A stretch of 51,754 bases of DNA, taken from IMG/VR virus record IMGVR_UViG_2861038214_000004; one strand, 5' to 3'. The translations under genes and the position numbers were made by a program. The DNA is from a virus (lineage: Duplodnaviria; Heunggongvirae; Uroviricota; Caudoviricetes). Of the stretch, positions 35,887 to 36,438 are shown piece by piece (position 1 is the stretch's first letter; every line of letters begins with the position of its first letter). The notes below the pieces were generated by a model. The model was given only the letters and a program-made list of their open reading frames with translations. It ran no database searches and was not told where the DNA came from.

Positions 35887-35990
35887 TTAATAACCCCCCT
35901 CTTTCAGCCAGATAACCTGTGTTCTCGCCATACCTTCCAGCGTGCATTCTTTTGCATATGCAGCATCGACTTGCTTGGCATGCCCTTTAC
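35887..35990 (-). pseudogene. 3' remnant of a ybcO-like nin gene
   Basis: Hand translation ...GHAKQVDAAYAKECTLEGMARTQVIWLKEGGY matches YbcO C-terminus; upstream in-frame stops, N-terminal two thirds missing. Confidence 0.4.
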
Positions 35991-36090
35991 CGGCAATCTT
36001 CTGTATGCGCTAAACCTAGATAGAATCCACTCTGTGCACATTGAAGCCCGCTCTATGCTTCCTTTCAGGTATTGAAGGGATTGAGATGGG

Positions 36091-36438
36091 CTAAGCATTA
36101 TTGGCCTCCTGCATCAGGAGAAAGACAATCATGGCGGCGCGGAGAGGTCTGGCATCAAATATTGGGCTTACGCCTTTTGCATCCACACACCATTCAGTTA
36201 ACTGGTCTAAGATAGAAATCCTGTATTTCTCAATAATCGGCCATGAAGCGCTCGGATCATTGCAGTAGTCAGGCAAATGATTTAATGGCTCAAAAGTTGT
36301 ATCAGCATTTCCGTAATACCATTTGTTGGTGTTATTCCCTGATGTTTCCGGTTTACTTGCCCAAAGGCCTTTAAAAATTATGTCTCCTACCATTCTGTTA
36401 ATTTCAAAATCACTTAACTGTGAATAATCCATTGTCAT
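36091..36438 (-). CDS. hypothetical nin-region protein, ~115 aa
   Basis: ORF (track 36091..36474); start set at MTMDYSQ immediately after ninE stop; no family recognised. Confidence 0.5.

Follow-up and report, generated by a model that had tools for sequence, protein, structure and literature searches.

The nin region of the window, which is the whole 51,754-nucleotide stretch of Caudoviricetes DNA that was analysed (IMG/VR record IMGVR_UViG_2861038214_000004), is very probably the seam of two standard lambdoid nin modules, and not a cassette inserted in a DLP12-like gene. The genes run on the minus strand in the order O, P, ren, ninB, a Dam-type methyltransferase gene, ninE, a 115-aa open reading frame (ORF), a gap of about 200 nt, rusA, ylcG and the gene for antiterminator Q. 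The left module, which comprises ninB, dam, ninE, ninX and the first part of ninF, belongs to the P22/Stx-phage type, and the right module (the end of ybcO, rusA, ylcG, antiterminator Q and the porin gene) to the DLP12/phage-82 type. So read, the region would be a clean, textbook lambdoid module junction, in which pieces of the two parental genes survive and a short microhomology marks the joint, and it would indicate that a P22-type left nin module can join a ybcO-rusA type at non-homologous points. The correct labels are NinX for the 115-aa ORF and ybcO (DUF1364) pseudogene for the fragment that lies before rusA, and they have little import beyond annotation. The coordinates of the features are summarized in Table 1.

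Table 1. Features of the nin region from the methyltransferase gene to rusA, in positions of the window.
Feature	Position	Strand	Evidence or remark
Phage Dam-type N6-adenine methyltransferase	36608..37135	-	Pfam Dam E = 9e-65; left-hand module
ninE, P22/Stx-phage type	36435..36611	-	Pfam NinE E = 3e-42, profile 1-58/58
ninX, 115 aa	36091..36438	-	Pfam PF10765 Phage_P22_NinX, PHROG 444
ninF 5′ remnant, 21 codons, 63 nt	36036..36098	-	92.9% P22-like block; PHROG 672
65-nt segment, no identifiable parent	35971..36035	-	Between the ninF and ybcO remnants
Putative breakpoint GTCGATG	35964..35970	-	Overlapping BLAST ends and alignment A1
ybcO 3′ remnant (DUF1364, His-Me finger nuclease family), last ~28 codons	35887..35970	-	DNA identity to DLP12 and PhiR70_1
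G-run with one extra G	35894..35899	-	Comparison of 45 distinct copies
ORF64, 64-aa hybrid ORF	35904..36098	-	ninF N-terminus + 65-nt segment + out-of-frame ybcO
rusA, Holliday-junction resolvase, GTG start	35521..35883	-	Pfam RusA E = 6e-23; first intact gene of the right module

The 115-aa ORF, which an earlier note on this DNA had regarded as an unknown gene, is NinX, an ordinary nin gene product of P22-type phages, as judged from its sequence. It matches the Pfam family PF10765 (Phage_P22_NinX, formerly DUF2591) with E = 6.5e-17 and 62.3 bits, the curated cut-off being 22.6, and the match is full-length, since residues 3-109 of NinX correspond to positions 1-114 of the 114 of the profile. 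The match to PHROG 444, which has the PHROG category 'unknown function', had E = 4e-44. The relatives of NinX found in a large protein collection formed 229 clusters, nearly all of them assigned to PF10765 under the names NinX or DUF2591; the genera represented include Escherichia, Salmonella, Citrobacter, Enterobacter and Klebsiella, the family being common in Enterobacteriaceae. All the conserved blocks of the family, starting with MDYSxLSDx, were found in the ORF, and in an alignment of 40 sequences (alignment A2) the invariant columns were Y5, D10, I13, C59, R100 and M103. NCBIfam gave no match for NinX, for ORF64 or for the ybcO remnant.

Concerning the position of ninX, the gene does begin immediately after the ninE stop, as the earlier note had it: the TGA of ninE is at 36437-36435 and is overlapped by the ATG of ninX at 36438-36436, forming ATGA. 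The stop codon of ninX is at 36093-36091, and its 3′ end is overlapped by the ninF start over 8 nt, in the manner of P22. If counted from the second ATG, which is the RefSeq start, the length of NinX is 113 aa. In the nin regions of P22 and phage L, ninX and ninF are among the standard genes, which for the most part have no known function and typically overlap as ATGA (PMC8022706).

NinX is itself a mosaic. About 40 nt at the 5′ end of the gene and 150 nt at its 3′ end share 93-98% DNA identity with P22 ninX, whereas no such similarity exists in the centre (approximately residues 15-64, 36395-36246). This central block (36246-36395) is a different variable cassette, which many prophage alleles of E. 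coli and Salmonella share. The family alignment displays two variable cassettes between conserved blocks, and they may reflect either cassette exchange or diversifying selection.

The AlphaFold2 model of NinX had a pLDDT of 85, its low-confidence part being the central block, and the protein is predicted as a small alpha/beta protein with an alpha-beta-beta-beta-alpha core in the C-terminal half. On account of this core, the best guess, held with low confidence, is that NinX would be a dispensable accessory protein with nucleic acid or another protein as its binding partner. The profile and structure search of the protein, which the earlier note had suggested, thus led to PF10765 and, at the level of fold, only to uncharacterised proteins. 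These were PDB 1r7l (Bacillus cereus prophage) and 4pup (Burkholderia cenocepacia), both of them structural-genomics entries, with 11-15% sequence identity to NinX and no sequence-level match; since neither has a known function, they add no mechanism. A relation to thioredoxin F, for which there were weak phmmer matches (E = 0.04-0.5), was discarded as unsupported by the profile and fold searches. The literature on NinX and DUF2591 consisted of genome descriptions, with no functional study found. NinX is, in short, a small protein that is widespread among phages and varies in its internal cassettes.

The fragment that precedes rusA is, by its sequence, a ybcO pseudogene, because both the Cys/His core and the start codon are missing. 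Translation of 36102-35887 yields a string that ends with I, a stop, V, a stop, and then RIQKIAGKGHAKQVDAAYAKECTLEGMARTQVIWLKEGGY followed by a stop, so that there are in-frame stops upstream of the remnant. Compared with DLP12 (E. coli K-12), the DNA of 35970-35887 has 97.3% identity, starting at ybcO nt 202, and compared with phage PhiR70_1 it has 97.6%, the identity running on into rusA in both cases; the matched region corresponds to approximately the last 84-90 nt of ybcO. The C-terminal ybcO remnant with upstream stops, which the earlier note had read by hand translation, is hence confirmed. What is gone is the 5′ part of about 200 nt, i.e. two-thirds of the gene, including the whole Cys/His-rich core. 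In DLP12 YbcO, for which the solved structure 3g27 of the family is available, the core CQVRIPGVC...CSACH is N-terminal, while the remnant of the window has no core, no start codon and no intact ORF. The remnant scored 17.2 bits with Pfam YbcO (PF07102), below the cut-off of 29.9, and covered only positions 62-91 of the 92 of the profile. YbcO/DUF1364 is a His-Me finger protein, and RusA is its usual neighbour (PMC5714182).

Another observation in this remnant concerns the G-run that ends at 35899. One extra G was found there in the window and in strain F5 only, 43 of the 45 distinct copies compared being without it. As a consequence of the extra G, the ybcO tail ends in ...EGGY and a stop instead of ...EGVIKA and a stop, and the ancestral overlap between the ybcO stop and the rusA start is removed.

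The distance from ninX to the ybcO remnant is 128 nt, made up of a 63-nt piece of the ninF 5′ end plus 65 further nt (36035-35971). So, the ORF does not directly take the place of the 5′ part of ybcO, as had been proposed; the earlier reading had missed the ninF remnant and the 65-nt segment, as well as the 64-aa ORF and the extra G ending at 35899. A block of 210 nt (36245-36036) is 92.9% identical to the 3′ end of P22 ninX plus the 5′ end of ninF, and 17 of the first 21 residues of the ninF remnant are identical to P22 NinF. PHROG 672 covers only residues 1-22 of the seam ORF (E = 0.003). Pfam NinF (PF05810) gave no match at E ≤ 10 either to ORF64 or to its frame-corrected version, with P22 NinF as a control at 2e-13. 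This is explained by the absence of the zinc ribbon CxxC...CxxCC, which is the whole of the Pfam model.

The 65-nt segment was seen in two contexts only, namely the arrangement of the window type and, with 87-88% identity, Stx1/O26-type prophages. In the latter, it lies in non-coding DNA after ninE and a lambda-type ninF 5′ remnant that has no start codon, and it is followed by unrelated non-coding DNA. Since the Stx1/O26-type prophages also have the segment after a ninF remnant, the joint between ninF′ and the segment appears older than the joint between the segment and ybcO. An intact parent of the segment was not found by blastn of 50,697 phage records and 5,426 E. coli genomes, nor by an IMG/VR pattern scan (117 loci), and for this reason the seam may record at least two successive events rather than one. 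It was also considered that the segment could be the diverged remainder of ninF, and this was rejected as unsupported: the alignment to P22 ninF past codon 20 does not exceed chance (its score was reached by 1799 of 2000 shuffles), and the frame-corrected translation also lacked a Pfam NinF match.

ORF64 starts at the ninF start, enters ybcO in a different frame and ends 20 nt before the GTG of rusA. Substitutions were counted in 65 full-length copies, which comprise 45 distinct sequences. The ORF64 frame, which is open in all 45, showed 5 synonymous versus 12 non-synonymous changes, near the neutral expectation; the ybcO frame showed 3 versus 7; and the rusA comparison gave 35 versus 23 plus one stop. 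Judged by these counts, ORF64 shows no purifying selection and is probably not a real gene. The substitution ratios and the frameshifting extra G, together with the lack of a NinF match and the negative searches of the spacer, fit a spacer made of neutral debris. In those searches, Rfam gave no match at E ≤ 1, the RNA fold was no better than that of shuffled sequence (z-score +0.42), and 35900-36100 contained no site resembling a promoter or a terminator.

It is to be noted that 92 nt of this spacer (36037-35946) had no variable site among the 45 distinct copies, while the flanks had about 5-10 variable sites per 50 nt. The 96-nt seam core varied in 18 of 588 E. coli copies. The same invariant stretch contains an 8-bp palindrome, GGCATGCC. 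As to annotation, RefSeq names ORF64 'protein ninF' in phages ev099 (locus L001, 3004-3198, NC_049953.1) and ev207, and other phage records name it 'hypothetical protein'. The label 'protein ninF' is probably wrong, a likely mis-annotation on the ground that the zinc ribbon of the Pfam NinF model is missing from ORF64.

The joint between the modules was located from the similarity of successive blocks to known phages. From 37142 to 36438 (dam and ninE), the window is 98% identical to the Stx1 phage AU6Stx1; the blocks 36605-36396 and 36245-36036 are 93-97% P22-like; and 36064-35964 is 87% identical to AU6Stx1. From 35970 to 34685 it is 97.3% DLP12-like, through rusA, ylcG and quuD, and no DLP12 DNA similarity was found to the left of 35970. 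That is, the nearest relative switches at 35970, with no cross-similarity between both sides. Alignment to DLP12 and other nin regions, as the earlier note had advised, defined the breakpoint at 35970-35964: the similarity to AU6Stx1 ends at 35964 and the similarity to ybcO begins at 35970, as seen in the BLAST ends and in alignment A1, so that both include GTCGATG, of which the part CGATG is common to the window, AU6Stx1 and ybcO sequences. The sharpness of the breakpoint at 35970 indicates that recombination removed the 5′ two-thirds of ybcO.

The alternative nearest to the earlier note is that a moron-like accessory cassette was inserted in a DLP12-like ninE-ybcO-rusA region, deleting the 5′ part of ybcO. 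This would account for the sharp cut of ybcO with everything rightward of it 97% DLP12-like, and genes are known to be exchanged in the nin region (PMC8022706), whose mosaic character is borne out. However, the left flank is not DLP12-like. The NinE of the window is identical to P22 NinE in 55 of 58 amino acids versus 21 of 62 to DLP12 NinE (51% DNA identity), and dam stands where DLP12 has ybcN. The overlaps of ninX with ninE and ninF are native, of the P22 type, and together with the P22-like ninE they imply that NinX arrived with its own neighbours, the sole novel joint being downstream of ninX. Besides, 128 nt of other material separate ninX from ybcO, and NinX is a member of a core family rather than a foreign cassette. 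The insertion is thus largely refuted by the left-flank comparison, and we consider it very unlikely. It can be said that, of the gene replacement proposed before, the cut of ybcO at a sharp breakpoint holds, and the landing of the ORF in a DLP12-like ninE-ybcO context does not. The earlier note had also weighed, against its own reading, the case of a common conserved nin gene in a region without any local breakpoint; the ORF is indeed such a common gene, but the local breakpoint exists all the same.

Two other explanations ascribe a role to the spacer. According to one, ORF64 is a genuine gene, whose product would be a NinF variant, in line with the RefSeq label, or else a new hybrid small protein. 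Its native ninF start with P22-type overlap, its being open in every distinct copy (in one of them despite an 18-nt insertion, which keeps the frame), its invariant central part and its presence as a CDS in several records would agree with a gene. Yet the likeness to NinF is limited to residues 1-21, without the zinc ribbon, the last ~22 codons are out-of-frame ybcO, and the 5 to 12 ratio of substitutions is near neutral. Moreover, the homologous stretch of Stx1 phages has no start codon and differs in 7 of 26 residues from 10-11 nt changes, and PGAP makes no call in E. coli genomes. A gene is therefore highly improbable. The other explanation, rather unlikely but not to the same degree, is that the spacer was kept as a cis-acting element, be it the initiation region of rusA with delivery of ribosomes through ORF64, or a 92-nt DNA or RNA signal. 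The ybcO stop and the rusA GTG overlap in DLP12 (GTGA), from which it follows that rusA was ancestrally coupled to an upstream ORF, and nin regions typically show tight translational coupling (PMC8022706). As ORF64 stops 20 nt before that GTG, it is conceivable, though quite unlikely, that it is translated and has been kept open to bring ribosomes to rusA in replacement of the ybcO-rusA coupling. If true, the debris would be a functional translational bridge made by a recombination accident, which might explain the invariant 92-nt core and an ORF open without amino-acid constraint. Against a cis-acting element there are the lack of promoter-like or terminator-like sites and of Rfam matches, an RNA fold equal to that of shuffled sequence, the variation of the 96-nt core in some E. 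coli copies, and the extra G, which shows that the tail tolerates change; and for some 64 codons to stay open by chance is not rare (roughly 5-10%). The reading as neutral debris has in turn its own weak point, for it explains the invariant 92 nt only by a lack of divergent alleles that recombination could import. This may indeed be what the invariance reflects.

Returning to the junction of two modules, a plausible course of events can be proposed. An ancestor with ninX, ninF′ and the 65-nt segment would have undergone illegitimate recombination with a phage that had ninE-ybcO-rusA, probably with a crossover at the 5-7 nt microhomology GTCGATG (35970-35964). This point of crossover is suggestive, not proven, because AU6Stx1, which is not the true left-hand parent, is just 87% identical over the segment. 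In this way a P22-like nin region would have exchanged its downstream part (ninF-ninG/rap in P22) for the ybcO-rusA type, with a ninF 5′ stump and a ybcO 3′ stump left as non-coding debris. The ybcO tail may have been kept because it contains the DNA that directly precedes the rusA GTG. The product would have been a viable phage type that later spread widely in E. coli. As to the direction of the event, a gain of ybcO-rusA and a gain of ninX-ninF′ are both compatible with the arrangement.

An in-frame NinX::YbcO fusion of 148 aa (protein P0031) was observed in another E. coli prophage lineage (loci L128 and L129, 3001-3447). It consists of residues 1 to ~85 of NinX plus the last ~60 residues of YbcO, and it is encoded between ninE and rusA-ninH-Q. 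Since this fusion is independent of the arrangement in the window, it indicates that joints between ninX and ybcO-rusA modules recur. In another protein (P0034), the same N-terminal part of NinX is fused to a PF11134 domain.

The event is not particular to the window. The same 1.8-kb arrangement, 98-99% identical, was found in 27 phage records, including ev099, ev243, Lambda_ev087, PhiR11_1 and mEp332, the latter an isolated phage, and the junction itself also in at least 78 IMG/VR contigs. Its 261-nt core, counted at a coverage of at least 80%, was present in 583 of 5426 complete E. coli genomes, and CFT073, Nissle 1917 and NU14, among others, have the 96-nt seam centre at 100% identity. In strain F5 and in CFT073, NCBI PGAP annotates a 'phage protein NinX family protein' followed by a 'DUF1364 domain-containing protein; incomplete; missing N-terminus'. 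Identical phage copies likewise have the ORF labelled as NinX or DUF2591. The arrangement is already known and annotated, old and widespread; it is real but ordinary. Some copies display further differences. In the prophage copy of E. coli CFT073 (locus L009, 4700-5913), there is an IS3-family element between ren and ninB. In another record with the same arrangement (L086, IMGVR_UViG_2802429245_000002, approximately 1368-2861), the ninF 5′ remnant has an 18-nt in-frame insertion, and ninB is joined straight to ninE, dam being absent.

A complete IS10 of 1329 bp was also observed in the window, at 32437-33765, inside the prophage porin gene (nmpC/ompD-like, with its 3′ part reaching 34726). Its transposase, of 402 aa, is encoded at 32450-33658 on the minus strand. 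The element is flanked by a 9-bp duplication, TGCTAAGCA, at 32428-32436 and 33766-33774, which we take to fit the IS10 hotspot NGCTNAGCN. When IS10 is subtracted, positions 30522-40120 of the window match E. coli strain F5 (NZ_CP195955.1) with 100% identity.

In comparison with known systems, the left side of the seam resembles P22, with the same order ninE-ninX-ninF and the same overlapping start and stop signals, but the ninF remnant differs from the NinF of P22 and lambda in that the zinc ribbon, located at residues 20-44 of P22 NinF, is missing. The right side resembles DLP12 and phage 82, whose YbcO is the closest known, and the remnant is placed directly upstream of rusA as in DLP12. The closest likeness is to E. 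coli CFT073, Nissle 1917, NU14 and F5 and to phages ev099, mEp332 and Lambda_ev087, which are 98-100% identical to the window from ninE through ninX and the remnants to rusA. From these E. coli and phage copies, the window is distinguished by the extra G at 35899, which it shares with F5, and by the IS10 in the nearby porin gene.
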